A model generated the notes under the pieces. The model was not told the origin of the DNA and did not search any database. It worked only from the letters and a program-made list of their open reading frames with translations. 64,000 bases of DNA from Longimicrobiales bacterium (GTDB lineage Bacteria > Gemmatimonadota > Gemmatimonadetes > Longimicrobiales > Gaopeijiaceae). Position numbers and translations under genes: made by a program. Below, one piece after another: positions 3,007-58,908 of the stretch. Positions within the stretch are counted from its first letter, which is position 1. Every line of letters begins with the position of its first letter. The stretch spans positions 224,001 through 288,000 of the forward strand of contig CBDCKN010000003.1 in NCBI GenBank assembly GCA_965218295.1. Reading direction: 5' to 3'.

Positions 3007-3387
3007 CGAGACCTCCGGGCCGGAGAAGCGATGAGGCAGTAGTGTGAACGATAGCCTGTCGGCTCGCTGGGCGTCAAAACTCGGCCGAGCGGGGCAGCTC
3101 TGTTCCTCGAAGTGGGCCTGGGAAGACTTGAACCCGTACTTGCCTTCAGGGGATGCCGGAATCTGCCGGGATAAAAAGGCACAATAACGGGCCCAATGGG
3201 CACACGAACGGACACAGACCGGGCTCTTCGGGTACGTCGTGCTTGCGCACCCCCTAGGGCGTGTAGGATCTTGACCTCCGTCTGATCCGCGGGTGTCGAC
3301 CATCGAGTCGGTTGCGGAGAAGCGGGGTCGTTCGGGGCCCCTCGTGTTCGTGGCCGTGGGCCATCGGATCTCCAGCAGGGAATAGCG

Positions 3388-5748
3388 ATGAGTCGCCGCA
3401 GATCCCAAGTGGGCTTGATCACCGTCGTGGCCCTGTTCACGGCAGTCGCGATACCCACACGCGCCCAAGTGCTGGCTGCGCAGTCGCCGGGTTCCACGGG
3501 GACCGACGGAGTCCGGGTCGATGGCCCCCCCCCGCCCACGGCGCCCGAAGTCATCAGCCGCGACGATCGAGGCAACGCCACGGTCCGGGCGGTCCGGTTG
3601 ACTGAGCCGATCCAACTCGACGGCGAACTGGACGAGCCCCTCTACCGGACGACCCCCTCCATATCAGGCTTCATCCAGAGCGTGCCGAATGAGGGAGGGG
3701 CGACGACCGAGCGGACGGAGGCTTGGATCGCGTTCGACGACAACAACGTCTATGTATCCGGGCGCGTGTGGGAGTCCGCGCCCGAGAGCGAGTGGGTGGC
3801 GAACGAAATGCGGCGCGACGGCAATCAGCTCCGTCTGAACGACAGCTTCGGCGTCATGTTCGATACGTATTACGATCGTCGCAACGGGGTAGGGTTCTAC
3901 ACGAATCCCCTCGGCGCACGCGCCGAGTTCGCGATGACGAACGAGGGCAACCCGAACCCGGACTGGAACCCCGTCTGGGACGTGCGAACCGGTCGCTTCG
4001 ACGGTGGTTGGACGGTTGAGATGCGGATCCCCTTCAAGTCCCTCCGGTACCGACCCGGCTCCGAGCAAGTCTGGGGCCTCCAGATGAGGCGCGGCATCCG
4101 TCGGAGGAACGAGTGGAGTTATCTCACGTTGGTCCCCATAGCGATGGCCGGAACAAGGGGCAGGGGGGCGTTGCGGATCTCGCGGTTCGGGACGCTGGTC
4201 GGGCTGGAGGCACCGCCGGCGAGCAGGGTGGTCGACGTCAAGCCGTACGGCATTTCGGGCCTCGAGACCGACCTGACCACCGATCCCCAAGTCCGCAATC
4301 ACCTCGACGCCGACGCGGGGTTGGACCTCAAGATCGGGATCACCGACAACCTGACGGCCGATCTCACGTACAACACCGACTTCGCCCAGGTCGAGGTGGA
4401 CGAACAGCAGGTGAACCTCACGCGGTTCAGCCTTTTCTTCCCCGAAAAGAGGGAGTTCTTTCTGGAAGGGCGAGGCATCTTCGTTTTCGGGACCGGCGGC
4501 GTGGGCGGCGGGGGCCGGGGCAGGGGCCGGGGCAGGGGGGGCTTCGGCGGCGGCGGCGTGAGCGTGCCCACGCTGTTCTTCAGCCGGCGCATCGGCCTCC
4601 AGAGCGGAGAGCCGGTGCCGATCCTCGGCGGTGGTCGAGTGACCGGGAAGGTCGGATCCTTCGATGTCGGCGTCCTGAGCGTCCAGACCGACGACCTCCA
4701 GAGCGCAGGCGCCGAGTCGACGAGCTTCACCGTGCTACGGCTCCGTCGGGACATCTTCCGGCGGAGCAGCATCGGAGTCCTGTTCGAGAACCGATCGAAG
4801 TCCACTGTCGCGCCGGGATCCAACCAGGCATACGGAGTGGACGCGACGTTCTCGTTCTTCGACAACCTGAACTTCCTCAGCTACTACGCCAAAACGGAGA
4901 CCGAGGGGCTCACGGGTACGGACGAGAGCTACCGGGGCCGGTTCAGCTACGACGGAGATCTATGGGGGCTTCAGGTCGATCATCTCCTGGTGGGGGAGGA
5001 CTTCAACCCGGAGCTCGGGTTCGTGCAGCGGAACGGATTCCGACAGACTTTCCTCTCGGGCAAGTACAGCCCGCGGCCGGCGTCCATCGAGTCGATCCGG
5101 CAGGTGACGCTCGAGGCGCGGCTCAACTACCTGGAGAACGCCGAAGCGGGGTTCGTCGAGACCCGGGAGCGACAGGGGAATTTCCAGATCGAGCTCGACA
5201 ACGGCGACTCGTTCAGCGCGGACTTGACCGACACCTACGAGAACCTGGTCGACCCGTTCCCCATCGCCCCCGACGTGACAATCCCGGTCGGCCGATACAC
5301 CTTCCGCGACGTGCAGCTGAGGTACAGCTTCGGTCCCCAGCGCCCGTACTCGGGGAATCTGTCGGTGCAGAGGGGCAGCTTCTTCGGTGGCGACCGTACA
5401 TCCGTGGGGTTTCAGCGGGCCAGGATCGAGGTGCTGCCCCAATTCTCCATCGAACCGAGCGTCTCGTTCAACTGGGTCGATCTGCCCCAGGGCGACTTCA
5501 CCCAGCACGTGGCCTCGACGCGCGTCAGCTACAGCTTCTCGCCCCGCATGTTCCTGAGCGGACTGGTCCAGTACAGTACCAATAGCGATACCTTCAGCAC
5601 GAATCTTCGACTGCGCTGGGAGTATGCCCCCGGAAGCGAGATCTTCATCGTGTACACGGAAGAGCGCGATACGGACGTGTTCGACCGGTTCTCCGAGCTG
5701 TCGAACCGGGGCCTCGTGATCAAGGTGAACCGGCTTTTCCGACTCTGA
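3388..5748 (+). CDS. Secreted DUF5916 / CBM9-like domain protein (probable outer-membrane protein)
   Basis: Signal peptide, LDGELDE, WTVEMRIPFKSLRY, NTDFAQVEVDEQQVNLTRFSLFFPEKREFFLEG and LFFSRRIG motifs; beta-rich C-terminus. Confidence 0.8.
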   Translation: MSRRRSQVGLITVVALFTAVAIPTRAQVLAAQSPGSTGTDGVRVDGPPPPTAPEVISRDDRGNATVRAVRLTEPIQLDGELDEPLYRTTPSISGFIQSVPNEGGATTERTEAWIAFDDNNVYVSGRVWESAPESEWVANEMRRDGNQLRLNDSFGVMFDTYYDRRNGVGFYTNPLGARAEFAMTNEGNPNPDWNPVWDVRTGRFDGGWTVEMRIPFKSLRYRPGSEQVWGLQMRRGIRRRNEWSYLTLVPIAMAGTRGRGALRISRFGTLVGLEAPPASRVVDVKPYGISGLETDLTTDPQVRNHLDADAGLDLKIGITDNLTADLTYNTDFAQVEVDEQQVNLTRFSLFFPEKREFFLEGRGIFVFGTGGVGGGGRGRGRGRGGFGGGGVSVPTLFFSRRIGLQSGEPVPILGGGRVTGKVGSFDVGVLSVQTDDLQSAGAESTSFTVLRLRRDIFRRSSIGVLFENRSKSTVAPGSNQAYGVDATFSFFDNLNFLSYYAKTETEGLTGTDESYRGRFSYDGDLWGLQVDHLLVGEDFNPELGFVQRNGFRQTFLSGKYSPRPASIESIRQVTLEARLNYLENAEAGFVETRERQGNFQIELDNGDSFSADLTDTYENLVDPFPIAPDVTIPVGRYTFRDVQLRYSFGPQRPYSGNLSVQRGSFFGGDRTSVGFQRARIEVLPQFSIEPSVSFNWVDLPQGDFTQHVASTRVSYSFSPRMFLSGLVQYSTNSDTFSTNLRLRWEYAPGSEIFIVYTEERDTDVFDRFSELSNRGLVIKVNRLFRL

Positions 5749-5800: not shown

Positions 5801-6247
5801 TTGGTCAGGCGCCTGAGTAGGGGTCGGAATCACGGCAGGATGCCGGAAAACTCAGACGGATCACGCGATTTGCCGCTTTCGTGATTCTCCGATGTCGTGA
5901 TCTACCGGTTTCGAGAACCGGCCATGGATCGCCGACCCCTAGATCGACGAAGTTGGACCGACTAGATGCCCCCCCCCGGCGACCCCCTGAACCCCATTCG
6001 TCCACAGGATGGGCCGAATCCCGGCAAGAATCATGATGGCTCTGATAAGTTACTGTGGTACCACGATATACATATGCTATCTCTTTGGTTGTCCCCTTTT
6101 CATACCCATTTTTAGGAACTGGATTCCAAACGACCCTAGCGGACCTTGGCGATCGTAACTGTTCGGCCAAGCCGTGGGGAGCGTCGTGTTGTCGGATCGT
6201 GTGGTGGGGTCTGGTAACGTGATCCGGAATGTAGTATCGTCGAGGGC

Positions 6248-8518
6248 ATGGCGATGCGGGACGGCAACGGACATGCGAACGTGGCGCTGGCCGAGGGGCT
6301 GGAGGAGCTTTGGCCGGTGCCCGGTTCCGTGGAGTCGGAGCTTGGGGACTGGCGGTCGCTGTACGAGCGGGAGCGCGAGCGAGCGGAGGCGGCGGTGGCC
6401 CGCGCGGAGGAGTTGCGGTGGGCGGAGGTGCGGGCGCGCTGCGAAGCGGGATCGTGGAAGTGGCGGTGGGAGGCGTCGCGCCGGAAGCTGAGGGCGGTGA
6501 TCGCGGAGACGCGGGAGGCCCGCCGCGCGGCGTGGGACGCCCTGGCGTTGCAGCGCGAGGTGGGGCGTCTGCACGGGCTGCTGCGGGAGGCCGGGGTGGA
6601 CGCGGGGAAGCGCGGCACGGAGATGGCGCTTCGGATGGAGGTGGCACGGCTTCGCGAGGAGGGTTGGGCGCTGGAGAAGGCGCTCGATGCCCGCGCGGCC
6701 GAGGTGCAGAACCTTCACAAGGCCCGCATCGAAGCGGACGCGGACATCCTGGCGCTGCGGCGGCAGTTGCGCGAGATGCTCGAGATCCACGGCGAACTGT
6801 CGAAGCTGGGGGACCAGCGGGACCGGGTCGAGTCGCTGTCGGAGGAGGTCGGGGCGCTTCGCTGGGCGCTGAAGGTCTCGGAGGCGTCGAAGGGCCGCCT
6901 GACGGCGCGGCTGCGGCGTGCGGTCGAGGCGGGGCGGGCGCGGTCGCCGTCGGCCGCCGACGCGGAGTTGCGCAAGGCCTTGCGCAGATCGCGGCGCCAG
7001 AGGGCGACGATCGGCTCGCTGACGCGGGAGAAGACCCGGCTCGGCAGGAGGATGCGGGCGTCGCGGCGGCGGATCGAGCGCCTCGAGGGCCAACTGGCGA
7101 AGCTTCGCGCGTCGCGCACGGTGCTGCCGAAGGGGCAGTCCGGCGGCGCGTGCGAGAGGCAGGAGCGACCGCGTTCGGGGCGGCGGCGGGGCCAGCAGCC
7201 CGGCACGCCGGTCCACGGCCGCACCCCGCGCCCGGGGCTTGAGGAACGCACCGAGGAGCACAACCCGCCCGCCGATGCGCGGGTGTGCCGGGGTTGCGGG
7301 AGCCCGTACGCGGCCAACGGCGCCGAGGAGTCGGCCCTCGTCGAGATCGAGGTCCGGGCGCACCGGCGGGTGATCCGCCGCCCGCGCTGGCGGCGGACGT
7401 GCGGGTGCGCGTCGTCGCCCGCCGAAGTGACGGCGCCCCCCGTGCCTCGGCTGTTCGCCCGCACGCCGTACGGGACGAGCGTCTGGTCGCGCTTCCTGTT
7501 CGAGCGCTACGCGTGCCTGCGCCCGCTGCACCGGGTCTGCGGGTGGCTGTCCGACCAGGGTCTGCCGGTCTCGCCGGGCACGCTGGCGGACAGCGTGCAC
7601 CGCTTGGCGCCGTTGTTCGAGCCGGTGGGCGCGGCGATCCTCGCGCACCAGAACGGCTCGGCGCTGCGCCATGCCGACGAGACCAGCTGGCGGGTGCGGG
7701 CGCTGCGCGACAGCGACGGATCGGGGTACGCGTGGCTGTGGATCTCGGTCGGCCGCGGCGCGGCCTACTTCCATGTGGATCCGTCACGCAGCGCCGAGGC
7801 GGCCCGGAAGCTGTTCGACGGGGCGCTGTGCCCGACGGTCCTCGTCTGCGACCGCTACAGCGGCTACAAGAAGCTGGCGCGTCTCCTCGGGGGCAGGGTC
7901 ACGCTGTCGTTCTGCTGGGCGCACATGCGCAGGGACTTCATCCGGTGCGCGGCCGGGCACGTCCATCTGACCGGCTGGTGCCGGGAGTGGCTCGGGCGGA
8001 TCGCCACGGTCTACCGCCTGCACAAGGCGCGGCTGGAGCTCCACGACCCCGGCCTCGAGCGCCAGAGCCCGGCGTTCGACGCGGCGCACGACGCGCTGAG
8101 CGAGGCGCTCGGCGGCATGTTCGCGGCCTCCGAACGCCAACTCGCCCGCCTGTCGCCAAAGGCGAGGGAGGGAGGGCCGCTGCGCTCGCTCCTCAACCAC
8201 CGCGAGGGGCTGAGCGTCTTCCTCGACCGGCCCCGCGTGCCGCTCGACAACAACCTCGCCGAGCGGCTGCTGCGCGGCCCGGCCATCGGGCGGCGCCTGT
8301 CGTTCGGCTCCGACAGCGAGTCCGGCGCCCGGTTCACCGCGCTCATGTACTCGGTGACCGGCACCCTGAGGCTGAACGGCCTCGACGTGCCGCGCTGGCT
8401 CGCCGACTGGTTGGCGGCGTGCGCGCGCGGCGGCGGTCGCCCGCCGGGCGACCTGTCGCCCTGGCTGCCGTGGTCGATGGACGCCGGACGCAGGCGCGAA
8501 ATGACGGCGTCCGCATGA
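6248..8518 (+). CDS. tnpC: IS66-family transposase with long N-terminal coiled coil
   Basis: GQQPG, CxxC zinc finger, HADET, CDRY, CWAH and DNNLAER motifs. Confidence 0.9.
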   Translation: MAMRDGNGHANVALAEGLEELWPVPGSVESELGDWRSLYERERERAEAAVARAEELRWAEVRARCEAGSWKWRWEASRRKLRAVIAETREARRAAWDALALQREVGRLHGLLREAGVDAGKRGTEMALRMEVARLREEGWALEKALDARAAEVQNLHKARIEADADILALRRQLREMLEIHGELSKLGDQRDRVESLSEEVGALRWALKVSEASKGRLTARLRRAVEAGRARSPSAADAELRKALRRSRRQRATIGSLTREKTRLGRRMRASRRRIERLEGQLAKLRASRTVLPKGQSGGACERQERPRSGRRRGQQPGTPVHGRTPRPGLEERTEEHNPPADARVCRGCGSPYAANGAEESALVEIEVRAHRRVIRRPRWRRTCGCASSPAEVTAPPVPRLFARTPYGTSVWSRFLFERYACLRPLHRVCGWLSDQGLPVSPGTLADSVHRLAPLFEPVGAAILAHQNGSALRHADETSWRVRALRDSDGSGYAWLWISVGRGAAYFHVDPSRSAEAARKLFDGALCPTVLVCDRYSGYKKLARLLGGRVTLSFCWAHMRRDFIRCAAGHVHLTGWCREWLGRIATVYRLHKARLELHDPGLERQSPAFDAAHDALSEALGGMFAASERQLARLSPKAREGGPLRSLLNHREGLSVFLDRPRVPLDNNLAERLLRGPAIGRRLSFGSDSESGARFTALMYSVTGTLRLNGLDVPRWLADWLAACARGGGRPPGDLSPWLPWSMDAGRRREMTASA

Positions 8519-13947: not shown

Positions 13948-14631
13948 CCCCTCTGGCAGCTCCTCCACGCTCATCCCGTCGATGCCCGGACTGCCCTTAT
14001 TCTGCCGCACGCGTTTCAACGCTCCTACGAGGTTGGCACGCCCGACCACCTCCTCCATCAGGAGATGCTCGCTTCCTGAGCGCTCGTCTCCATGGGCCAC
14101 CGTTCCGGCTTCGCCACTCCCCTCTACCTTCGGGGCTTCACCCCTATCCTCCAGCGGGAGCTCCAGTTGCCTGGACTCCTGGCGCATGGCCTTCTCGAGA
14201 TCCACGGTCGTCACACTCTCCTCTCCGTTCGGCCCTTCGTCCGACAAAGCTGGGTCCAAGCGCATCATGCACTTCGTCGGCCTACTATGGCCTCTGCTGA
14301 CTTCTCGCTCCGCCGGCAGGCCCAACAGCGCAATGCCGGCGTCGCCCTTTCAGGCGTCAGGCGAGACCTCCCCGGGTAAGAACGATGACCTTCCCCGCAC
14401 AATCGCCGGATCTACGCCGCTTCCCCTTGGTCGCAGGAGCTTCGCGGTCAGTGGTCCGCTCGCCCCGGTCCGCAGCGCCTCGTATCCGGTTCCTGTTCGT
14501 CGACTCACGGGTTCGTTTCACGCTTCGTTCAGCGTACGCCTCACGACGAACGCCTTGCGCTTCCCTTCGGTCCCTGCGACCAGGTTCCGGGAGGACTTTC
14601 ACCTCCAAGTCATTGCCCATGCCGGGCCCAC
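13948..14631 (-). mobile_element. Group IIC intron, 5' part only (ribozyme 5' domains plus RT N-terminal fragment 13948-14187)
   Basis: 5' end GTGGGCCCGGCATGGGC directly after a terminator; RT-0 motif ANLVGALKRVRQNKGSPGIDGMSV; truncated at the IS3 junction. Confidence 0.85.
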
Positions 14632-42747: not shown

Positions 42748-43662
42748 CTATAGCAGTCCCCAAATCCACTTGATCATGAATCCAAGAATCAAACAGGCAA
42801 TCAAATAGACCGTGCCCCAAAAGTAACTGGGACGGTCATGAAAAAGGCTCCTGAAGACATAGTGCAAGAGGCCAACTATGGCTTTAGTCTGGGCTTCGTC
42901 GAAGCCAGCTTCCTTGAGGTGGCGGTAGTAGGGGTGGTGGTAGGGTTCGTCTGGATCTTCAAACACGACGTCAACTATGGCTTCGGCCTGAGCTTCTTTG
43001 AAGCCGGCGGTATTGAGGATACGTCGGGCTTCCTGGACTCTGTCCTTTCTGTCCCGGAACTGGTGGAGGCCGGACGTCGGCCAATCAGTCTTGTGTCCGT
43101 AGGTGCTCAGGCACAAGGCATCAACTATGGCTTCGGCCTGGGCTTTCTTGAAGCCGTAATTCCTAAGGTAGCTTCTGGCGTTCATACCTTCAAATCCGGG
43201 ATCGTTTTCTTCAGATTGGAGCCCGTGAACGAACAAGGCATCAACTATGGCTTCGGCATCGTCCTGGAAGAAACTTTCACTGAGGGTGCGGCTGTGGATT
43301 TTGTGCCGGTCTTCGGTCAAGACGTCAACTAAGGATTCGGCCTGGGCTTCGTCGAAGCCGGCGTTCTTGAGGAGATATGTGTTGGCTCTATAGGCTTCGT
43401 CGGGATCTTCAAACATGACGTCAACTATGGCTTCGACCTTGATCTTGGCGAAGGAGGCGGCGGTGAGTGTACGGCGAGCTTTCCGGGCTTTCGTGGCCTT
43501 GGACCATTGGTCGTCACGGATGATGGAAGTCAAGGTGACGTCAACTATAGTTTTGGCCTTGGCCTCGGTGAAGCCGGCGGCCTTTAGTGTGCGGCGTATC
43601 TTTGAGCGACCATAAAAATACACGGTTTCCCCTTTCGTTCTGGCAATCAATCCTCCCGCCAC
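42748..43662 (-). CDS. Protein with 7 tandem DUF1640/CCDC90-head-like repeats and a C-terminal TM anchor
   Basis: Repeats LxxAGFxEAQAEAIVD; hydrophobic C-terminus; start uncertain. Confidence 0.65.
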   Translation of the reverse strand: MAGGLIARTKGETVYFYGRSKIRRTLKAAGFTEAKAKTIVDVTLTSIIRDDQWSKATKARKARRTLTAASFAKIKVEAIVDVMFEDPDEAYRANTYLLKNAGFDEAQAESLVDVLTEDRHKIHSRTLSESFFQDDAEAIVDALFVHGLQSEENDPGFEGMNARSYLRNYGFKKAQAEAIVDALCLSTYGHKTDWPTSGLHQFRDRKDRVQEARRILNTAGFKEAQAEAIVDVVFEDPDEPYHHPYYRHLKEAGFDEAQTKAIVGLLHYVFRSLFHDRPSYFWGTVYLIACLILGFMIKWIWGLL

Positions 43663-47130: not shown

Positions 47131-47796
47131 CCGTGCGCCAAAACCGCCGGACTCGCCGATCTGGAACGCCGTGTTGATCTTGTCGAGCGCTCCGTCCCAC
47201 GCGGCGAGGGGCGATCCCGAAATCGCCCGTACCCTCACCTCAAGAGGGACACCGAGGGCAACTGGGACCGAGCGGCGGGATACAAGCCGAGCAGAACATG
47301 CTGGCAGCTGGCCAGGCTTGACCGTGGAGCCATTGCGCTACGTGCATCCTTCGGCCCTCACAGTCAGTCTGCCAGGGCTTGGCGTGAGATGCCGAACGGA
47401 CCCGACCTTGACGAAGCGGGACTTCGGGTCTCGATGTTTCTTCGATGTTTTTTTCTGGAAAACCTTACTGAAACATGCGGGCTTTTCATCGGGCTAGAAA
47501 CAGACGACTAAGCCCTTCTCCTGCTCTATGAGCAGGCGGTCAGTCCCCGTTTGGTCCCTTGGCTAGAACGATCTGTCGCCAAGGCGCGCACGATACTGTG
47601 CACGTTCACGACACGGATCCTTGGGGGGTGGGGGTGGGGGAGGGGTGAACTATTTCGCCTCTTATTTCTTAACCCCAGAATCGCAAGTCCGTTAGGAGGG
47701 CGTGGCCACAAATTTCCGCCGCCGCAACTCACGCCGATAGATCAGCTGGGGTGCATTGCACTTGGGCTCCCGTGGTACCGTGAGCGCACTCACGTC

Positions 47797-47940
47797 CTAT
47801 AACGCCGGACTCAAGCACGGCCCTCGGGTACGCTGTCGCGGGGAAGCCGGAAGCTCTAACGTGAGCAACGGGCCGGCCGCTTCGCGGACACTCCGGTGGC
47901 TGTGCCACCTCCGCGTCTTGAGCCAGTGAGCCCGTTACGC
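47797..47940 (+). repeat. attC-like site 1 (family A, 144 bp)
   Basis: TAACGCCGGACTCAAG...CTTGAGCCAGTGAGCCCGTTA. Confidence 0.75.
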
Positions 47941-47992
47941 GACACGCTAAAGAGACGTCTTGACGTTGTGACGTATAGCGCTATAGTGACCC

Positions 47993-48226
47993 ATGAGCAC
48001 GAAAACAAAGCGTACAACGGTCTACTTCTCTCCTTCCGTACATCGAGCCTTACGACTCAAGGCCGCCGAGACGGAGCAAAGCGTATCCGACCTCGTGAAC
48101 GAGGCAGTCCTCGGGATCCTCTCCGAAGACGCGGAGGATCTCGAGGCGTTTGAGGCACGCGCGAACGAGCCAAGCCTCTCCTTCTCCGATGTGCTGCAGG
48201 AGATGAGGCAGAGCGGTGAGCTATGA
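47993..48226 (+). CDS. CopG/RHH antitoxin (cassette)
   Basis: KRTTVY..HRALRLKAAETEQSVSDLVNEAV; own TTGACG..TATAGT promoter. Confidence 0.82.
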   Translation: MSTKTKRTTVYFSPSVHRALRLKAAETEQSVSDLVNEAVLGILSEDAEDLEAFEARANEPSLSFSDVLQEMRQSGEL

Positions 48227-48470
48227 TCTCCAGATCAAGCCCTCTGCCGTCAAGGAACTGAAAGCTCTCCAGGAAGCGGATCGCGGCCGGGTCGTCGATC
48301 GCATCCATGCTCTGGCCGAGGACCCCCGGCCTCGTGGCTGCGAGAAGCTAACCGGTGGATTTCGGTACCGGGTACGCCAGGGATCGCATCGTGTCTTGTA
48401 CGAAGTCGACGATGAAGCCCAGATCGTCACCGTCGTGAAGATTGGCCACCGCCGAGACGTGTATCGATAG
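48216..48470 (+). CDS. relE: RelE/ParE-family toxin (cassette)
   Basis: PRPRGCEKL..YRVRQG.HRVLY..KIGHRRDVYR motif. Confidence 0.88.
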   Translation: MSYDLQIKPSAVKELKALQEADRGRVVDRIHALAEDPRPRGCEKLTGGFRYRVRQGSHRVLYEVDDEAQIVTVVKIGHRRDVYR

Positions 48471-48489
48471 TTTGCGGTGTACGCGCGTC

Positions 48490-48638
48490 GCGTAACGCCG
48501 CTCTCCCGCCGAACCCTTCGGTGCGCCTTCGCGCATTACGTGTTGTGGCACTATCGTGGAGACCGACGGGCCCGTCCCTTCGGGGCACTCCGTTCGCGGA
48601 CGCTCACTCCGCGCCGGGAGCGCGTGAGCCCGTTACGG
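48490..48638 (+). repeat. attC-like site 2 (family B, 149 bp)
   Basis: TAACGCCGCTCTCCCG...CGGGAGCGCGTGAGCCCGTTA. Confidence 0.75.
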
Positions 48639-48690
48639 ACATGCGCTTTAGCGGGAAGCAAGACTTTGGCCCCCGAGGCTCCCCGTTAGG

Positions 48691-49257
48691 TCACGGCCAT
48701 AGCGCGGCGAAGATGGCGCCGGTAGCGAGCCCATAGAGCACGGCGTCGATCACGTGTTTCCACGTATTGCTCCACGGTGCTCCGAAATAGACGGCGGCCG
48801 TGATGACTCCTGCGCCGTGTCCCATTGCCGCCACTGTCGCCGAGATCCGAAACACATCCATGGCCGGCTGCCCAGCGGCGAAGCCTGTACCTGTCACATA
48901 CGCCACCAGCCCGGACAATACCAAATAGAAGATGAAAAGCTGTACTAACTTCCTCCCTATCGCACTGATCGTGGGAACGCCGGACGGCACGATAAAGATG
49001 AACCCGACCGGGCCTTGGGTCAGCTTCTCTGCGATTTCAGGATCCTCCACCTCCGCGTGGGTCCAGGCACGCGGCAGCATGTAACCGCCAGGCGCGGGAG
49101 GCCGTTCTCGCATCGCGTTGATCACGCTGTCTTCGTCGGGGAGCTTCTTGAAGTCGGACTTGTGGTGGGGAAGCGCCGTCCACACGAGAAGGCTCAGGAT
49201 GAACACCGCTACGGTGGACAACAAAATGGGCAGCCACAGATCTAGCAGTGGGACCAC
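48691..49257 (-). CDS. Hypothetical multi-pass membrane protein
   Basis: Four hydrophobic segments; WTALPHHKSDF..PGGY motif; GTG start with GGAG RBS. Confidence 0.75.
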   Translation of the reverse strand: MVPLLDLWLPILLSTVAVFILSLLVWTALPHHKSDFKKLPDEDSVINAMRERPPAPGGYMLPRAWTHAEVEDPEIAEKLTQGPVGFIFIVPSGVPTISAIGRKLVQLFIFYLVLSGLVAYVTGTGFAAGQPAMDVFRISATVAAMGHGAGVITAAVYFGAPWSNTWKHVIDAVLYGLATGAIFAALWP

Positions 49258-49452
49258 ATGCTTCTCCAAGTTGGGGGCAGCCAGCAAGGTTCCCCGCCCG
49301 ATAACGCAGCGCAAGAGGCCGCACCATCAAGTCACGGTTCAACCACGGATAGAGACGGCGATCTCTTAGACACGCGGGTCGCATCGAGACCCGCCAGTTT
49401 GCCTCCGGTGTTCGACAGCGCGTCGTCCTCCGAAACCGGCCTCTCAGCTGAG

Positions 49453-52020
49453 CTACAGCCAATCCGTGGGGAATTCCTCCCGGTACCGCTCAATCGCGTC
49501 GGCAGTCCCACAGATGTAGATGGCGTCGTCCGAGGCGAGTTCCAGATCGGTCGGAAAGTCCATGGTCACCGTTCCACCGCGGTCCAGTGCTACGACCGTG
49601 CATCCGGTGCGCTCGCGGATCCGCTCCCTGATCGGGTTCTTCCCTTCGAGCTGGCCCGCGCTCACGAGCGCGAGCTTGATACGCGGCTGTAGCGAGACGG
49701 TCTCACCGAGCACGTGGTGGGCCAGGAGCTGGCCGGCGACCTGACTGATCGACAGGGCGAAGTCGGCGCCGGCCCGGTGGACGCGCGCAACACTCTCGGC
49801 CAGCCGGGCACCCGCGATGATGGGAAGGTCTGGTGCGTGGTCTCGCAGCAGCGTCGCCGCATAGACCGTAGGGCTTTCAGCGCCGAGAGCCAACGCTGCC
49901 ACGCGCGCGTCGGCCAAAGGCAGAAGGTCGAGCACCTCGGGGTCGGTGACGTCTCCGACGAGGTCGACACCCGGACGCTCCTCGGAGTCGAGCACACAGA
50001 CCTCCTCGCCCACCGCCCGCAGGATCTCGGCGAGCTTCTGACCCACGCTTCCGAATCCGACCACGATGATCACGCCCTCCTCGCGGATCGGCCGTGCCAT
50101 CTCGCTGAGCTGCTCGATGCTCTCCGGCGTCCCCGCTGCGACGAGGATCGTGCCGGGAGGGATGGTCTCGTGCGGGTCCGGAGCGGCGCCCAGCTCGGCG
50201 TCGCGCCACTGTCCGATTATGTTGGCTCCGGTACGCGTCCGTATCCGCGTGGCCGCGAGCGTGGCGTGCGCGAGCGGGCTGCCGTCGTGGACCCTGAGCT
50301 CCGCCACCTCGAGGAGTCGGCTTAGCGGCCGGAAGCCCATTACCCGCGGCCCGACTTTAGCGCTGGCCCGCGCGCTCAGCATCGCCGCGAGCACGTGCGT
50401 CGGTGCGAAGGTCACGTCGGCCCCCGCGAACAACATGGGCGAACGGCGACGCGGGTCCTCGATCATCGCAACGATCTGTCCCTCGAGGCCGACCTCGCGG
50501 GCTCCTAGCGAGAGCAGGACGTTGTCGTCGTCGTCGCCGTTCAGGACCAGCGAGCGTGCACGTGCCAGCGGCCGCAGGTCCACCTCTTGCTCGGAGATCC
50601 TCGCGTGAACCACACTCCTCCCCCGTTCGTGGAGTCGACGCGCCACATCTTCGTCCTCCTCCACGATCAAGTAGGGGAGTCCCCGTCGCTCCAGCTCGCC
50701 CACGAGAGACACGATCTCCGGTCCGTGCCGGTACAGGACCACCGCGTCGGCCAGGTTGGGAAGCGTGGTCGGCGGGCGAGAGCCGTTGGCCTCCGGGGCC
50801 GCGGACTCCCTGAACTTGTCCGACCACAGGATCCCTACGCCCGCGCCTTCGAGGCGGGCAGCCCGCCCTGCGAGCAGAACGGAGCACCCCTTGAGCCCAA
50901 TTGGCGTGAAGAGGTTGAGGAGGAACGCGGTGAAGATCAGCACCGAGAATATCGCGGGTGCGATGGCGCCCTCGGCGAGGGCAAGCGATGCGAGGATGAA
51001 CGCGAGCTCGGCACGCCCGCACATCCCCACACCGACCGTGAGAGCCTCCCGCGCGGGAAGACCCATCCGGATCGCCATGCCCCCGGCGCTCACGACCTGC
51101 CCGACGATCACGGCCGTGGTGAGGACCGCGAGGAAGCCCAGGCCCGACGCGCTGATCTGGAAGGTGATCGAGAAGCCGAGGGAGATGAAGAAAATTGGCC
51201 CGAGGAAAGAGTACGCGATCCCGTACGAGCGATCGGCCACCACACGCACGAGGTTCGGGTGGGCGACCCTCTCCTCGAAGAAGAGCCCGGCCAGGTACGC
51301 GCCCAGGATCATGTGCAGCCCGATCGCCTCCGCCACCAGTCCGGCACCGATCGCGACAACGAGTACGAACGTGAAGCCCTTTCCACCCTCGGACCGGAAC
51401 GGGAGCGTCAGACTCGGATAGACGTGGCGGCCAAGCACGAAGGCGAACGCGAAGAAGGTGATGACCTTGACGAGCGTGACCGCGACGGCCGCCGGCGTGA
51501 ACGAGCCGCCCGACAACACCCCCAGGATCAGGCCGAAGAAGACGAGTGTCAGCAGGTCGTCGATGACGCAGCTCGCGACGATGATTCGGGCGACCCGGGT
51601 GTCGGCAAGCCCGAGGTCTCGGAGCGTCTTGAGCGTGATCACGACCGCCGTTGCGGTCATCGTGAGGCCCACGAAGGTCGCGCCCACCGGGTCCAGCCCG
51701 AACGCCGTGGCCACGCCGAAGCTCACCCCGAACGGCACCAGCGCGCCCACGACGGCCACGCCGAGCGAACGTCTCAGGGCGTCGAAGAACTGCCGGGGCT
51801 GCGTCTCCACCCCGGCGTGGAACATGAGGAAGAAGATGCCGATCTCGGCGAGCAGCGTGATCGCTTCGCTGGGCTCGATCCAGCCGAGCACGGCTGGGCC
51901 GACCAGAACGCCCACGATCAACTCACCCATGATCGTCGGCAGCCCGAGCGGGCGCAGAGTTACAGCGACGAGCCAGATGGCGGCTAGCAGGATCAGTAGG
52001 TCGACCGCGATGTCGTGCAT
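49453..52020 (-). CDS. CPA2 cation:proton antiporter with multiple RCK (TrkA_N/TrkA_C) domains
   Basis: ~12 TM N-terminus (GELIVG, IDD, GRAE) followed by RCK domains (VGFGSVG). Confidence 0.88.
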   Translation of the reverse strand: MHDIAVDLLILLAAIWLVAVTLRPLGLPTIMGELIVGVLVGPAVLGWIEPSEAITLLAEIGIFFLMFHAGVETQPRQFFDALRRSLGVAVVGALVPFGVSFGVATAFGLDPVGATFVGLTMTATAVVITLKTLRDLGLADTRVARIIVASCVIDDLLTLVFFGLILGVLSGGSFTPAAVAVTLVKVITFFAFAFVLGRHVYPSLTLPFRSEGGKGFTFVLVVAIGAGLVAEAIGLHMILGAYLAGLFFEERVAHPNLVRVVADRSYGIAYSFLGPIFFISLGFSITFQISASGLGFLAVLTTAVIVGQVVSAGGMAIRMGLPAREALTVGVGMCGRAELAFILASLALAEGAIAPAIFSVLIFTAFLLNLFTPIGLKGCSVLLAGRAARLEGAGVGILWSDKFRESAAPEANGSRPPTTLPNLADAVVLYRHGPEIVSLVGELERRGLPYLIVEEDEDVARRLHERGRSVVHARISEQEVDLRPLARARSLVLNGDDDDNVLLSLGAREVGLEGQIVAMIEDPRRRSPMLFAGADVTFAPTHVLAAMLSARASAKVGPRVMGFRPLSRLLEVAELRVHDGSPLAHATLAATRIRTRTGANIIGQWRDAELGAAPDPHETIPPGTILVAAGTPESIEQLSEMARPIREEGVIIVVGFGSVGQKLAEILRAVGEEVCVLDSEERPGVDLVGDVTDPEVLDLLPLADARVAALALGAESPTVYAATLLRDHAPDLPIIAGARLAESVARVHRAGADFALSISQVAGQLLAHHVLGETVSLQPRIKLALVSAGQLEGKNPIRERIRERTGCTVVALDRGGTVTMDFPTDLELASDDAIYICGTADAIERYREEFPTDWL

Positions 52021-52161
52021 CCGGTCAACCTACAAGGCCGGGAGACGCCTGCCGAGCGGCCAACAGAACTCGATGCAGGCCACCATCGCCGGTGCTGAAG
52101 GCCCCGGGGTTCGGCGTTAGTTGACCATCAGCAGAAAGGATGGGACAATCGAGCGCACGTC

Positions 52162-52411
52162 CGATAACGCCGGACTCACGCGCTCGCCTGACAGCTATAA
52201 CGAGCACACACACACATGCCTGATAGGTATGCGGTTCGTGCTCGCGGACCTTACGGGTCCGTTTCGCTATCAGGGGGAGTGCTCGTCATAGTCCCTGCGC
52301 GCTGTCGCGCTCCGGCAACTCGGGTCTTACGATGAGCAACGGTTCGGCCGCTTCGCGGACACTCCGGTGGCTTCGCCACCTCCGCGTCTCGAGTCAGTGA
52401 GCCCGTTATCG
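52162..52411 (+). repeat. attC-like site 3 (family A, 250 bp, with internal hairpin insert)
   Basis: GTCCGATAACGCCGGACTCA...GAGTCAGTGAGCCCGTTATCGGAC. Confidence 0.72.
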
Positions 52412-52487
52412 GACCTGCCTTTGGACAGCGTATTGTGAGGGATTGAAGTGGAGTAGTCAATATCGGTTACGGCTGCTCCAGGCGTCT

Positions 52488-54054
52488 CGGAACCTGTCAA
52501 CGCCAGTGAGACACTCTTGGAAATCAATTAGAGAGCAATCTCCTGTGTAGTGAGGGATGGGGTGGGAGGATTGATCCAGACGGCCTCCGGGAGTGGTTTA
52601 GGCTTCGGCTCACCGGAGACGAAGCGCTCGGGATGAGCGGCCCATGCCTCACGGAGCACGGCCTTCCTGCAGGCGATGATCCGATCGGCGTGACCGAAGT
52701 GGACCTGTTCGGGGGTCAGCATCGAGATGCCGCCATGGCGGTGCTCGGCATTATACCAACGGAAGAACGAGCGACAGAAGGTCTTGGCTTGCCCCTGATC
52801 CCCGAACCGGCCGGGAAACGAGGGATGGTACTTCAAGGTCTTGAACTGAGCCTCGGAGAACGGATTGTCATCCGAGACCTGGGGTCGGCCCAACGAGCGG
52901 GTCACGCCGAGATCGGCGAGTAGTTGAGCCGTGCATTGGCTCGTCATCGGAGCCCCTCGATCGGAATGCAGGGTCAGGAGGTGGGGCTGGACGCCATGCT
53001 TCAAGCAACTCTGCTGGATCAGCCGGCTGGCCAGGGCAGAGTTCTCCCGATCCGCCACCATCCATCCCACGACGTAGCGGCTGAAGATGTCCAGGATCAC
53101 GTAGAGGTAGAAGTAACTCCACTTCTTCGGCCCCAGCAGCCGGGTGATATCCCAGGACCAGACCTGGTTCGGGCCCCTCGCCATCAACTCGGGTTTCTGG
53201 TATTTGGGATGACTCCGCTGCGCTCGACGCTCCTGAACCGGCACCTGGGAAGCCAGAACGCGATACATCGTACGCTCGCTGCACAGGTAGACGTCCTCGT
53301 CGAGCAGCGTCGCCACCACCTCGGCTGGGGACCGGTCCACGAACCGCTCCGAACACAGCGTGTCGAAGACCTTGTCTCGTTCCTTCTCGCTTAAGGCCCG
53401 GGCGGGGGTCGGGCGGGGCTGCTGATGCCCGGTCGATGGCCTCCGACGACGGTAGAACGTGGCTCGCGGCACCCTGAGCGCATCGCACGCGGGCTTCACC
53501 CCTACGTGCTTGGCTAGCTCCTGGGTCGCCTTCATGAGTTCGTCCCGTCCTCGAGGCTCAATCCCAGCAGCCCTGCAACTTTTCCCTGGACGTCGATGAT
53601 CAAGTGCGCCTTCTGGAGCTCCTTCTCGAGGCGAGTGTTCTCGCGCTCCAGCTTGCGCACCTTCTCCTCCAGCGGATTGCGCTCGCGCTTACGGCCTCGT
53701 TTCTTCGACAGCGCTTTCAGGGACCCGCTATGCGCCGCCTTGCGCCATGTCGTCAGGTGCGACGAGTACAAGCCCTCCCGCCGTAGGAGTCGGCCAACCT
53801 CTCCGGGCTCCGTGCACCGGTCCGCTTCTTCGACGATCCGCAGCTTGTACGACGGAGCGAACCGCCGGCGCAGCGGCCTATCTACCACCTCCGAGTCCGC
53901 AGGAGCTGCCGCGCTTCGCTTACCGTCCCAGGTTGGTGGGGCTATTCCATTCTCTTTCATTCTCTCTCGGTGTCTCAGCATCCTCGGTTTCTCTGCCTTC
54001 GCCCTACTCTAATTCCTTAGCTGCTCCGTGTCTCACGTAAGTTGGCAGAGAGGG
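52488..54054 (-). mobile_element. IS3-family element, copy 2 (orfB 52528-53535, orfA 53532-53960)
   Basis: Near-identical to copy 1; 3-bp TSD TCT. Confidence 0.92.
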
Positions 54055-54276
54055 TCTTAGCTTTGCGCCTCCGCTGGCAGACTCCAGCTATCGCGATGGA
54101 CCATCATTGTTTTGATTGCAGCAAACAGCATTTGGGCCGTTCAGTGTTTCACTCAAGTTGGGTGGCTGAGCGGAAGTGCCTCCTTTTTGGGGCTCTCTCA
54201 TCTCCTACTCGAAGGATTGTGGGTTGGTGGGTTGGCTTACTTGGAGGCTCGAATTGTCCTTCCGGTTGCAGCCTAG
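54055..54276 (+). pseudogene. Small membrane-protein cassette gene, 3' part (5' remnant at ~52445-52487)
   Basis: WTIIVLIAANSIWAVQ..SHLLLEGLWVGGLAYLEAR..*; low GC; ends just before attC-like site 4. Confidence 0.55.
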
Positions 54277-54314
54277 GACTAGGTATTACTGCGCAGGCGT
54301 AAGTCCGCTACTGC

Positions 54315-54405
54315 GCATAACACATCCGTTTACGCTGCGGCCCATTCGGGCCTTGGCCTTCGGCACCCCGCATACGCGGGGTCGTAAATGGTGAAAACGT
54401 TATAT
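54315..54405 (+). repeat. attC-like site 4 (91 bp)
   Basis: GCATAAC..CCGTTTACG...CGTAAATGGTGAAAACGTTATAT. Confidence 0.68.
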
Positions 54406-54420
54406 GACACGGTCTCGAAC

Positions 54421-54891
54421 ATGAGAGAATCTTTGAACACCGAGCCAAGCCAACTGAAGCGTGGCAGGGCTTTTCATCGACTCGTTCAACACGAGTGGCA
54501 TCTTACCGCTGAGGGTGCGATCCAGGACGAACGGCCGGTCATCCTTCGCGAAGGGATCGGAGAGAAACGCGCAGAAGAGTACGTGGGGTGGTGGGGTCCG
54601 GACGGTCGGTCGGAAGGCCTGTGCGTCGAGGAGATCGCAGAGTGGGCGAGGCGATTGGGTTTAGAAGCGGTGGTGTGGACGGCATTGCCTTCGGGACTCC
54701 GAGATTCCCCTGGCGAAGTGCCGACATCCGAGGCGGTGGTCGCCTATCTCCGGGACCTCCCCGCTGAGCCATGCAGGAAAGCACGGGAGTACATCAGGCG
54801 GGCGCCTCCGCAAATCGACACGGCTACAAGACGTTCTATGAGAGCGATCGTCAAGGGCGGACTTCTCCCCGTCCGATCGCCCCGGCTTTAG
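54421..54891 (+). pseudogene. Hypothetical cassette ORF, probably a chimera from deletions
   Basis: Starts 22 bp after the GTT; AVVWTALP..AREYIRRAPPQIDT segment. Confidence 0.4.
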
Positions 54892-55047
54892 CTCGTTGAC
54901 GATCAGCCCCGAAGGTTGGGATGACGAGGTCGTTGGGTGCTTCCGGGTCGGCTGAGCAGTCTTCTTTCGCATCGTTCTCCTCGGTCGGTCACCGGATCCA
55001 GTGATGGACACATGCAAGCGTTGGGTGGGTCGCGCGCGGCGAACCAT

Positions 55048-56403
55048 GGTTCTATCTGAGACTCGGCGGATAGGCCGGCCTGACGCTTATTCGGGTTCTG
55101 CGGGGGGGCCTACGGTTAGGTGAGTGCCTCGGCTTGACTGGTGGCCGGGCGAACGACTCGCTCGAGACTGCCCCCCGCACCCTGGTCCCGGACCCTGGAG
55201 CCGACGGCGAGGGGAACGCCCCGCACCACCGCCTCGTGGGGTCCGGGCGCTAGCGCGCTTGCATCGTCAGCTTCGTTGGATCGTAGAGCTCTCCTGTCTT
55301 CCAAAGCCGTAGTGTGATCGCCGCAAGCTTGCGGGTCAGGGTCACCCGTGCGAGTTCCGGTCGCATCCCGCGAGCGATCATCTCGTGATAGAAGTCCTGC
55401 AGCGGGCCAGGCCGTGCCGTGGCGGCCGTGGCCGCGCCCTTGAAGACATCCTTGAGCACCCGGTTGTGATTGCGGTTGAGCCCCCGCGTCATGGGTGCGC
55501 GGCGCCGCCGCACCGGCCGCCCCTCGACCAGCGTGTAGTCCGCGCTCGAGGAGGTCACGACGGCCAGGCCGCTGTAGCCCCTGCCCCATAGGTTCCGCTT
55601 GGTGCGGAACCGCCAGGGCGTGCGCATGGTCGCCAGCAGCAGGGCGACCCGCACCGGCCCCAGGAAGGGGACCGTGCCCAGCACGGGCCATGCCGGGTCG
55701 CGCCGTGCTTCCGTCACCATGGCGGCCTTCGCCTTGGGCCGCAGTTCACGGAGCACGTCGAGTTGGGCGTACAGCGCCTGCGCCCGGAACCGGACCCCGC
55801 GCTCGGGCAGCTTGGCGAGCCACTCGGCCCGGTGCCTCGGGTGGTAGACGCGCTTGCCCGGCGTCTTGATCCCGCGGGCCCGGAACAGCGCCTTCAGCCG
55901 CAGCATCACCCGGGTCGTGTCCTCGACCACACTCTGATAGGTCCGAGTGAGCTCCTTCAGCGTGGCCCGATGCGCGCTCCCGTGATAGACCGCCCGTAGC
56001 CCCCCGCGGCGCAGCAACTCCGACAGCTCGTCGGCATCGACCTGGTCACCCTTGTTCCCTTGCCGCGACTTCCCACGCCGGTCGCACACGACGACTCGAT
56101 CCACCACTGGCTCGAGGAGATCGTGCAGCCACTGCGCTTGGGTCCCCTCCTCGAACGCCACATGCACCGCCCCGCGCATCCCGGAGAACCATTCCACGAT
56201 CACCGGCTCCTCGGTGGCCATGATGCTGCGCGCGATCACACGCCCGCCCTCCGCCCGAACCGACGCCAGTGTCGTTGCTTGATGTACATCCAGTGCCACA
56301 TACTTCGTCGTCCGCTTCATGAGGGCCGCTCCTTGTTGGGTTCCAAGCGTCTTCGTCGACATCTTCTTGGTATCCGCAAGGGGCGTGCTCTCAATATCCG
56401 TTT
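55048..56403 (-). mobile_element. IS110-family element (transposase 55250-56320); ends approximate
   Basis: YVALDVH, FEEG, KGDQVDA and YSGL motifs; ~200-bp non-coding end downstream. Confidence 0.85.
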
Positions 56404-56449
56404 GGTAGAGATTGAATTGGGATGGACACACATCCGTGGGGACCGCGTC

Positions 56450-56607
56450 ATATAACGCCGGACTCAAGCTCTCGCCTGCGACTCTTACCTCCGCGCTGTC
56501 GCGCTCCGGCAGCTCGGATCTTACGATGAGCAACGGCTCGGCCGCTTCGCGGACACTCCGGTGAGCTCCGCTCACCTCTATGTCGTGAGTCAGTGAGCCC
56601 GTTATAC
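56450..56607 (+). repeat. attC-like site 5 (family A, 158 bp)
   Basis: GTCATATAACGCCGGACTCAAG...GAGTCAGTGAGCCCGTTATAC. Confidence 0.75.
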
Positions 56608-56639
56608 GGAATCGCGAGAGCCAGCAAGGAGGGGTAGCT

Positions 56640-56975
56640 CTGGAGCTCCCACGACGGACTGAAGTCGAAATCCCGAGACGCAAGGTCACCGGCTACCTTC
56701 TGGCAACAGTGCACCCTGTCGGGGGCGCGAAGGCCAGGTACTTCGAGTCCCGAGGCTACAGCCTCGAATCTCCGGAAGATCTGGAGGCGGCGCTCCGGGA
56801 GGTAGCTGAGGTCGGCGAGGTCGTCACGACAGAAGCGACGCAGTGGGGAACGAAGTACTTTGTCTCGGGGAATGTCCGGGCTCCTGACGGGAACCCTATG
56901 GCACTCGGCACCGTATGGATTGTCACCGGCGAGGATGTGCCTGTGCTGGTAACCGCTTACCCGACGCGGAGATAA
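56640..56975 (+). CDS. DUF6883-like putative toxin (cassette)
   Basis: K.TGYLL..HPVGGAKARYF..GY and LVTAYP motifs; CTG start behind AAGGAGG. Confidence 0.7.
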   Translation: MELPRRTEVEIPRRKVTGYLLATVHPVGGAKARYFESRGYSLESPEDLEAALREVAEVGEVVTTEATQWGTKYFVSGNVRAPDGNPMALGTVWIVTGEDVPVLVTAYPTRR

Positions 56976-56979
56976 AGGC

Positions 56980-57204
56980 ATGAAAGAGCTCGATACGGTC
57001 GTTCTGCGCCGGGAGCTTCCAGAGGCCGGCCTAGAGGCGGGCGACGTCGGGGCGATCGTGCACTGCCATGCCGACGATTCCTACGAGGTCGAATTTGTCT
57101 CCGGGGAGGGTGGAACCGTGGCGGTCGTCACGCTTTCTGGCGCTGATCTGCGTCCGATTGAGGCCCGCGAGATTCTCCATGTGCGGAGCCTGGCCCACCA
57201 TTAG
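56980..57204 (+). CDS. DUF4926-like putative antitoxin (cassette)
   Basis: ELDTVVL..GDVGAIVH..YEVEF motif. Confidence 0.78.
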   Translation: MKELDTVVLRRELPEAGLEAGDVGAIVHCHADDSYEVEFVSGEGGTVAVVTLSGADLRPIEAREILHVRSLAHH

Positions 57205-57217
57205 GGTGCGCGACTCC

Positions 57218-57366
57218 GCGTAACGCCGCTCTCCCGCTCGGGCCCCCAGCTCCGCTTCGCGCGATGAGCGCGCAGTTACTATCGTGAACGCCACGGGCCC
57301 GGCCCCTGCGGGGGCACTCCGTTCGCGGCGCTCACTCCGCGCCGGGAGCGCGTGAGCCCGTTATGC
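57218..57366 (+). repeat. attC-like site 6 (family B, 149 bp)
   Basis: Same ends as site 2. Confidence 0.75.
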
Positions 57367-57633
57367 GCCATTAGTGGGCGGCCGCATGACTAAACGGAAT
57401 GCAGGTTCTTGCGAGTGGTCGTGTGTAGGCCCGTCGCGCGTATTGTGCGACCCTGCCCGCGCCGCGCCATAATTCATAATCAGAACGCTCCGATGCAAGT
57501 GCGTCGATCCAGTGCAGGCAGGGGACCTTCTTCGGAAGCGGCGGTCGGACGTCCGAAGGCTCCGACCGGCGATGGGCCACGCGGCCCGACGACGCCCTCG
57601 GTCCCAAGTCGGGGCAGGCTCTCCCTCCCGGTC

Positions 57634-58118
57634 TCAGCCAAACGGGAGTTGTAGACCAAAGAGAAGTGGGACGTGTACGCCATCTACTCCTTGGGGCACT
57701 TCAAGGCGCACATGTAGCCGCAGAACGCCAATCACCACCGAGAGCTGACCATGCGGTTGTACGTGCCACTCATTGGCCCGACGGAGTAGGCCTCCACCGC
57801 CACCCGCTCGGACGCTGCCGAGGATGTATGAAACTCCAACGCCGATTGACTGCCTCCTAGTTCGCAGCCATCGGAGCACCTCACTCCGATCCCCCGCTGG
57901 CCCGCGTAAGCGCTCCACAGTAGCGAGGCGCTGTGGAGGTCGACCTCCAGGAACGCGCTCATGCCCCCGGATTCCAGGTTCCCGTTCCTCGTAATGGCCG
58001 CCATCCCAATGGAGGGAGTGACCGTCAGAGTTGCACCCGCGGACTCTTGAGCACGCAGCGTCCCGCGCCCGAGTCCAAAGGGCACGAGCAGGGTGAGGAC
58101 GACGAGTCGTGTCAGCAA
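57634..58118 (-). pseudogene. Secreted/beta-barrel-like protein with one frameshift near 57860
   Basis: Signal-peptide ORF continues as QSIGVGVSY..LLFGLQLPFG* in another frame. Confidence 0.5.
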
Positions 58119-58235
58119 GGTCGGGATATCTCCGGGAACAAGGGATGGCTACCCTTAACAACGAGTCGTACCTCGGCGCTGTGACACGTGCCGATAGCGT
58201 AGGTTCCTTCCGGGTGATCGTGTTGCGTGGAGAGA

Positions 58236-58715
58236 TCAGCCCCCGCCTCCGAACAGTTCCCGCGCCTCATCTTCGGTAAGTCCGGCCTCGCCCACGTGCG
58301 CGCTGGCGTCGAGCAATTCTCGGTCCTCCGCCATTCTGGCTAGGGCCAGCGAAGCAGCAGCGGAGCCCGCACCCGACAGTGCGAACACGGGGCCCAACAC
58401 CAGAAAGGCGTCCCCTCCAAGGGCGGCGGCCAAGACAAAGATCCCGGACAGCAGAAGACCCCCAACGCCTCCCCACACTGCAAAGCGCGGAAGCGACATC
58501 TGATCAAACCTGCGACGGCCCTCAACAATCCCGAGGACCCCAGAGAACGTGACGCCGGCAAGAAAGCCAAGTAGAGCGAACCCGAGGGGAAACGGGACGT
58601 CGGCGGCGCCAACACCAACTACCAGCAGGAGCGTGACGCCCGCGCCAAACCATGCTAATGCCCAGGTCAGGCCCATCCCGATTGCACCGCGGATGCGTCG
58701 CAGCCACTTCTTCAT
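58236..58715 (-). CDS. Hypothetical 4-TM membrane protein
   Basis: MKKWLRRIRGAIGMGLTWA; GGAGG RBS. Confidence 0.75.
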   Translation of the reverse strand: MKKWLRRIRGAIGMGLTWALAWFGAGVTLLLVVGVGAADVPFPLGFALLGFLAGVTFSGVLGIVEGRRRFDQMSLPRFAVWGGVGGLLLSGIFVLAAALGGDAFLVLGPVFALSGAGSAAASLALARMAEDRELLDASAHVGEAGLTEDEARELFGGGG

Positions 58716-58908
58716 TGCTACCCTCCCTGTGCACGTGGATCTCTACCGCTGGTGCTGCAAGCTCCGGTCCGGCCGTGTCCGGGTGCCAGGCCAGGAGTGC
58801 GCCTCGACCGTCGCGGGGGCGATGCCTAACAGGGATTTGCTGCTGGCGCGGCTTACCAGCGGTCCGCACCGTTCGCATTGCAGCCGCGCGTGGTTGTCAG
58901 GCCCCCGA

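Follow-up and report, generated by a model that had tools for sequence, protein, structure and literature searches.

The window, by which we mean the whole 64,000-nt stretch analysed (positions 224001 to 288000 of contig C3 in the Longimicrobiales genome G000, a 3.57-Mb assembly, 90.7% complete), carries six structured sites on its plus strand, each running from xxxTAAC through a GTT, with small gene units and insertion sequences (ISs) set between them (Table 1). An earlier note, made from the letters alone, had described them as unusually long attC-like sites of an integron array that lacks its integrase. All six were located where it had placed them, its two sequence families hold (A, sites 1, 3 and 5; B, sites 2 and 6; site 4 is a singleton), and the departure from the RYYYAAC/GTTRRRY consensus extends to every right end, as 0/6 fit GTTRRRY. 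The motif GTGANNNCGTTA has eight matches in the entire assembly, six of which are the six sites, and full-length BLAST matches of the sites, searched across the same assembly, are confined to this array. The counterpart of site 3 in the genome G002 is 249 nt long with a different stem sequence, hence the extra stem of this long form is read as an optional arm; an attC nested within site 3 was considered and rejected on the same ground.

Bounds from AAC to GTT and a crossover at G|TT, as in integrons, were found at the window sites, as was complementarity between the ends of successive cassettes. Over the 12 bases after GTT this reaches 10/12 at junction 1–2, 11/12 at junction 4–5 and 9/12 at junction 5–6 (chance of about 4e-4, 9e-5 and 2e-3, respectively). 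Junction 2–3 gives 2/12 ungapped and 11/12 with one gap, and junction 3–4 fails to match (5/12). The downstream flank of site 3 matches that site as well (10/12), since cassettes of the site family of the window repeatedly begin with GTTATCGGAC, and the junction matches are therefore not fully independent. Folded as a whole, sites 3 and 4 only are clearly better than shuffled sequences, with sites 1 and 6 no better (z −0.5 to −1.3); the palindromy of the sites sits in their ends. Rfam and tRNA scans gave no match within the array.

Comparison with relatives showed, at the level of aligned sequence, that the units between sites are bounded at G|TT and exchanged between genomes. Window positions 47925–48506 are 93.8% identical to the first cassette behind a short tyrosine recombinase in G442, whose copy begins at the same G|TT, and G002, with a head sequence similar to that of G442, has another first cassette at this G|TT. 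Cassette 2 is found in G002 as a 1064-bp unit, 84.6% identical and with different neighbours. Cassettes are thus shuffled as units between arrays in the G002 and G442 comparisons, as in integrons. The window array itself also occurs in G002, where an IS interrupts its site 3, and in G450, minus 47693–54832. Repeats without cassette function, of the repetitive extragenic palindrome (REP) or miniature inverted-repeat transposable element (MITE) kind, might be expected in a genome as rich in ISs as G000, and the sites do hold several small GC hairpins. These sites, however, occur in one array only, on one strand and with complementary cassette ends, and cassettes are exchanged exactly between genomes; the precise G|TT boundary common to the window and G442 refutes such repeats, which we regard as a negligible prospect. 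That the window holds an array of gene cassettes is virtually certain.

Where arrays of this site family in relatives have a recombinase at their head, it is an enzyme other than the integron integrase, IntI. A sequence model of the family (R1) had matches in 25 of 150 family genomes, G000 among them, and in the 20 stretches fetched around R1 matches the short recombinase stood at the head in five and a full IntI in none. With two further loci (L024 and L076, in G002 and G406) it heads family arrays in seven genomes, including a second array in G002 with six sites of the same families. The first cassette starts 100–300 bp past this recombinase in most heads displayed, and R1 had no match in the eight IntI loci tested. 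The head enzyme is a co-oriented tyrosine recombinase of about 290 aa without the insertion of about 41 residues (I2) found in IntI. Intact copies occur in G406, G442 and G518. In G406 (L076:15835–16716, minus) it has 293 aa with SAM_4 and catalytic domains, and its alignment shows 14 residues where VchIntIA has 55. The distance from KDR to HxLR is 62–63 residues in 11/11 array-heading recombinases and 103–104 in 22/29 IntI proteins, the other seven rows being mis-anchored. Its best structural match by sequence is the XerA-like PDB entry 4a8e (E 3.6e-44); a single-sequence structure model of the G406 recombinase reached a pLDDT (predicted local distance difference test) of 39 and was discarded. 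The five family recombinases included in a quick tree of 75 proteins, with an untested root, form one clade (99) and IntI another (100). We consider it very likely, from these sequence comparisons, that the cognate enzyme of the window sites is this short, I2-less recombinase. Two elements (L231, G513:C61, ~2300–4200, and L232, G475:C78, ~6100–8000) pair a short tyrosine recombinase with a presumably IS91-like transposase and are placed, in the manner of autonomous cassettes, exactly at the G|TT of a head site and of a family site.

To compare site shape, each site was scored against two stem models, one with a bulge at the ninth base after AAC and one without. This base is the canonical extrahelical one, in agreement with passages of Nivina 2020 (PMC7439510). 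Arrays were recovered at 15 of 32 IntI loci and at nine of 21 short-recombinase loci; the IntI control was run on long contigs, as draft contigs yielded an array in 1/17 loci. Sites on the gene strand at IntI loci were bulged in 86 cases, unbulged in two and unclear in three, with all 15 array-yielding loci bulged. At short-recombinase loci 62 were unbulged, one bulged and five unclear, with 8/9 array-yielding loci unbulged. In a wider set of 80 loci around relatives of this recombinase, most of them from Bacteroidota, gene-strand arrays were recovered at 27 (22 unbulged, two bulged, three tied), and shuffled DNA gave an array in 2/142 strands. Rows on the opposite strand were dropped as mirror readings (one IntI, two phylum, five wide). 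Scored directly, all six window sites and six sites in G002 favoured the unbulged stem, with a right spacer of 6–10 nt, as did 33 of 46 distinct family sites. A further short recombinase, at L229 (G450:C1:2936501 onward), has five unbulged sites of a different family; its genome also holds the window array.

Other features of the sites follow the same division. Median site length is 156 nt in short-recombinase arrays and 106 nt in IntI arrays, and complementarity at the junctions reaches about 12 bases in the former and fades after eight in the latter. An A-to-G mismatch at junction position 8 occurs in 48/53 short-recombinase junctions and 3/71 IntI junctions, in 23/33 junctions within the window site family, and in four of the five window junctions, one of them aligned with a 1-nt gap; on the bottom strand only, the mismatch becomes a G.T pair. 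The inner stem covaries (own arms 5.09, against a mean of 4.30 and a maximum of 4.72 when cross-paired in 500 shuffles), with position 10 being A-T in 19/46 and C-G in 19/46 family sites, and its wobbles lean to the bottom strand, 16 versus 7. As far as sequence can tell, site shape thus tracks enzyme type within the phylum almost without exception, and the window sites differ in geometry from the phylum's own IntI-headed sites. The short-recombinase signature is carried by every one of the six window sites and by four of the five junctions. The earlier note's oversized attC of an IntI integron is therefore unsupported as stated, as there is no extrahelical base, the spacer geometry is another one and the family in relatives follows an I2-less recombinase; its cassette array without an adjoining recombinase remains.

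The short recombinase could be cognate and still act on double-stranded DNA, as Xer and Cre do, or accept either strand; the hairpin would then be a by-product of inverted binding sites. The absence of I2 and of an extrahelical base would suit such an enzyme, as would the match to 4a8e, the similar folding energies of top and bottom strands, and one cassette that has swapped its downstream site. Double-strand exchange, however, normally requires an identical overlap, whereas partner sites have unlike sequences to the left of G|TT; furthermore, the position-8 mismatch is one-sided and the inner-stem wobbles favour the bottom strand. We judge this alternative quite improbable.

What the G000 assembly itself encodes bears on a second alternative, an ordinary cluster of attC sites lacking an integron integrase (CALIN), in which these would be unusual attC sites of a canonical IntI and the short recombinase a neighbour or helper. 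No intI lies in the window, as noted earlier, and the assembly as a whole has no match over the TIGR02249 cut-off. Neither two IntI proteins nor two short recombinases, used as queries, found a counterpart in this 91%-complete assembly; apart from the Xer-like gene on C5, these queries matched long integrases, weakly, and an intI scrap of 23 codons, and nothing more. The locus that carries intI in both congeners is present in G000 and empty, and IntI occurs in 164/401 phylum genomes. IntI-type site halves flank the window array, and the 159-aa gene past site 6 is found in both systems, as first cassette of the IntI locus in G002 and nested inside short-recombinase cassettes in G406 and G513. 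The IntI arrays of Gemmatimonadota (IntI loci L109–L128 and L099) are likewise co-oriented with intI, in 15/15, and have long right spacers, mostly 8–9 nt where 5–6 nt is usual for IntI. All of this would suit an ordinary CALIN, but the family sites are missing from the IntI loci tested, IntI arrays are bulged in 15/15 loci and without the position-8 wobble, and the first cassette starts 100–300 bp after the short recombinase in most displayed heads. A whole IntI-type 159-aa cassette, bulged site included, is nested within a family cassette in G513, and IntI-type right ends lie just within family cassettes of G406 and G409; because of this nesting, cargo is the simplest reading of the two IntI-type remnants that flank the window array. 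These remnants nevertheless keep an ordinary CALIN alive as an explanation, albeit an unlikely one. The layout, at least two sites and no neighbouring integron integrase, is that of a CALIN, a name which suits the arrangement and probably implies the wrong enzyme.

Several observations weigh against assigning the window array to the short recombinase. As none was found in the G000 assembly, the link between enzyme and sites rests on relatives, both congeners carry IntI, and IntI-type remnants flank the array. No recombinase at all was present in 15/20 stretches around R1 matches, and head recombinases are damaged in G002 (5′-truncated), G409 (two frames) and G480 (partial), with close I2-less relatives sitting in IS91-like elements without arrays. 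The window sites scored 5.0–6.5, below the threshold of the array detector, and the 46 family sites include four bulged and nine unclear. On the opposite strand, 12 sites of L077 and two of L084 fit the bulged model, 14 of the 15 sites in the two dropped phylum rows. Near the R box, RNAalifold chose a different register for family B. The site closing cassette 4 belongs to family A in the window and to family B in G442, a swap on one cassette that, to our knowledge, the strict integron model does not predict. Finally, the loci compared are kin and not independent trials.

Weighing these points, we think it likely that the window holds a decaying cassette array built by an integron-like system with an I2-less short tyrosine recombinase. 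The array behaves like an integron, yet it lacks the marks of IntI and of attC. The substrate of the short recombinase would be each site's bottom strand in folded form, with recombination at G|TT, and a single-strand hairpin chemistry of this kind seems fairly likely. Each cassette would excise as a circle whose ends rebuild an outer stem of about 13 bp whose position 8 is a G.T wobble. The two binding sites would be this outer stem and the unbulged inner stem of 8–10 bp, separated by an asymmetric bubble of 2–5 nt against 7–10 nt. One strand would be exchanged at G|TT, hence no sequence identity would be needed between partners, whose flanks do differ, and replication may resolve the junction, by analogy with integrons. 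With neither I2 nor bulged bases, the strand would be marked by the wobble and the bubble, and a weak strand choice could explain the different sites of cassette 4 here and in G442. New cassettes would enter at the head site, 100–300 bp past the recombinase stop. A collapsed 37-nt site in G442 retains just the two stems, hinting that the long site interior is dispensable. More speculatively, and as a possibility we hold only tentatively, the I2-less recombinases may be a living pre-integron that captures cassettes through wobble and bubble hairpins and not flipped-out bases; hairpin recombination would then predate I2, and this system would coexist with the integrons of Gemmatimonadota, cargo moving between the two and family cassettes being built from pieces of IntI arrays.

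The window array is a decayed orphan, broken by ISs (Table 1), and probably either became separated from its recombinase as ISs spread in G000 or was laid down in trans. The leader of site 1 has matches of 79–84% in arrays of G480 and G442 that continue into site 1. Cassette 1 has its own sigma70-like promoter in a promoter scan (47960–47987). The 207-aa protein of cassette 2 has hypothetical proteins as its Atlas matches. The antiporter insertion, with a GC content of 67.5%, is missing from the G002 cassette, and the gene alone aligns in 10/10 other loci. An inverted cassette here is unsupported, with no matching far end and with relatives carrying the gene alone. Just upstream of the antiporter gene, on the minus strand at 52022–52130, is an inverted-repeat element with a TAACGCCG start which may be a degenerate site in the opposite orientation. 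Cassette 3, whose ends are non-complementary, is probably a fused remnant. A longer homologue of cassette 4 with the same ends lies in locus L211 of G442, and cassette 5 has homologues in short-recombinase arrays of G480 and G398. Whether a site travels with the upstream or the downstream gene was assessed over 63 cassettes, which gave five pairs, three in favour of the downstream site and two not. No excision joint at cassette borders was among the joints listed for contigs of four public runs, which is no evidence either way because contigs drop rare variants.

Table 1 Features of the cassette array in the window. Site coordinates begin at xxxTAAC; the GTT column gives the position of the GTT of each site.
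Feature	Position	Strand	GTT	Remarks
Collapsed IntI-type site remnant	47667..47697	+		Right-end motif as in IntI loci L099, L124 and L045
Truncated cassette 3′ end, conserved family A leader	47721..47796	+		Matches run into site 1 in relatives
Site 1	47797..47940	+	47934	Family A, 144 nt
Cassette 1	47935..48632	+		Ribbon-helix-helix (RHH) antitoxin 47993-48226, ParE toxin 48216-48470 (Pfam)
Site 2	48490..48638	+	48632	Family B, 149 nt
Cassette 2	48633..52405	+		Inverted 207-aa gene (48691-49314, minus), later 2.7-kb insertion
Antiporter gene insertion in cassette 2	49415..52137	-		Cation/proton antiporter with TrkA domains, 49453-52020 (Pfam)
Site 3	52162..52411	+	52405	Family A long form, 250 nt; ~95 nt extra internal stem-loop
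Cassette 3	52406..54399	+		No clear gene; 347 bp to site 4 without the IS
IS3-like element	52488..54054	-		Two open reading frames, Pfam rve and HTH_Tnp_1
Site 4	54315..54405	+	54399	Singleton, 91 nt; unbulged 8-bp stem, 8-nt right spacer
Cassette 4	54400..56601	+		Two-gene cassette, internally deleted, broken by IS110
IS110-family element	54832..56405	-		At a GTT; transposase 55250-56320, Pfam PF01548
Site 5	56450..56607	+	56601	Family A, 158 nt
Cassette 5	56602..57360	+		DUF6883 56634-56975, DUF4926 56980-57204 (Pfam)
Site 6	57218..57366	+	57360	Family B, 149 nt
Distal remnant	57361..58900	+		Inverted 128-aa and 159-aa open reading frames; then left half of an IntI-type (bulged) site, 58824

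The ISs of the locus belong to a strong expansion in G000, with 48 near-full copies of the IS3-like element and 20 of an element we take to be IS481-like. The IS3-like copy in cassette 3 is missing at this position in G002 and in contigs of 4/4 public runs. An IS110 sits at the GTT of the 47667–47697 remnant in G002 and G450, and in contigs of three of the four public runs. In six genomes, members of this IS110-family group are inserted exactly at the GTT, whether the site is bulged or unbulged (window 47691 and 54832; L045, L076, L100, L212, L214 and L225). Elsewhere in G000, isolated sites or site halves, some of each type, lie scattered at C1:80249, C9:257609, C12:82040, C3:362621 and C3:378974.

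Outside the array, the window holds three copies (36848, 42513 and 47048) of a repeat of about 80 bp with 14 copies in the genome. Several of these lie near tyrosine integrase genes of 400–470 aa (28 PF00589 matches), and the repeat may mark one end of an element that integrates in tandem. The minus strand also encodes, at 42748–43662, a 304-aa protein of ~33–40-residue repeats with a CCDC90-like match, and carries group II intron fragments at 14232–14550 (Rfam RF02001 and RF01998).

In the literature searched, which left most subscription journals and supplements outside its scope, no description of cassette arrays of I2-less enzymes was found. Passages of Escudero 2020 (PMC7790495) hold the I2 domain to be necessary for cassette capture and present in no other protein, and name missing evolutionary intermediates as a limit; the insertion is also treated as defining and necessary in the parts consulted of Neron 2022, Nivina 2020 (PMC7439510) and Ghaly 2021. 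With both enzyme types in one phylum, matched pairs of enzyme and site are available for probing the need for I2 and what it contributes. Our results also suggest that cassette arrays, those of Bacteroidota for instance, are undercounted by tools built around IntI and bulged attC models. The window locus, as a decayed orphan, has its value as the entry to this family.

Among known systems, XerA, XerC and XerD share with the short recombinase its length, catalytic residues and lack of I2, but the latter heads a variable cassette array and a separate Xer gene is present in the genome. The ‘integron-like’ simple tyrosine recombinases (Smyshlyaev et al. 2021, PMC8138268; NCBIfam NF040815) are a further point of comparison, the insertion being termed essential there, and the passages concerned describe no cassette arrays for insertion-less members. 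As in the IS1111-attC group (Siddiquee 2024, PMC11187229, in the part consulted), IS110-family elements are found here at the GTT of sites, but as passengers and not as the system, and both site types are targeted. In the sections consulted of Cury et al. 2016 (PMC4889954), recombinases near attC matches that lack the insertion were judged not to be IntI, and for the four that fell between IntI and Xer the number of sites was below three. Integrons with a co-oriented (‘inverted’) IntI and CALINs, as treated in those sections, are the closest likeness: they too have cassettes cut at G|TT, sites running from AAC to GTT, complementary cassette ends, toxin–antitoxin and inverted-gene cargo, and loss of the integrase. 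In contrast to these, the enzyme proposed here is without the IntI insertion, and its sites are longer, have no extrahelical base, and combine a right spacer of 7–10 nt with a 13-bp outer stem and a fixed wobble.

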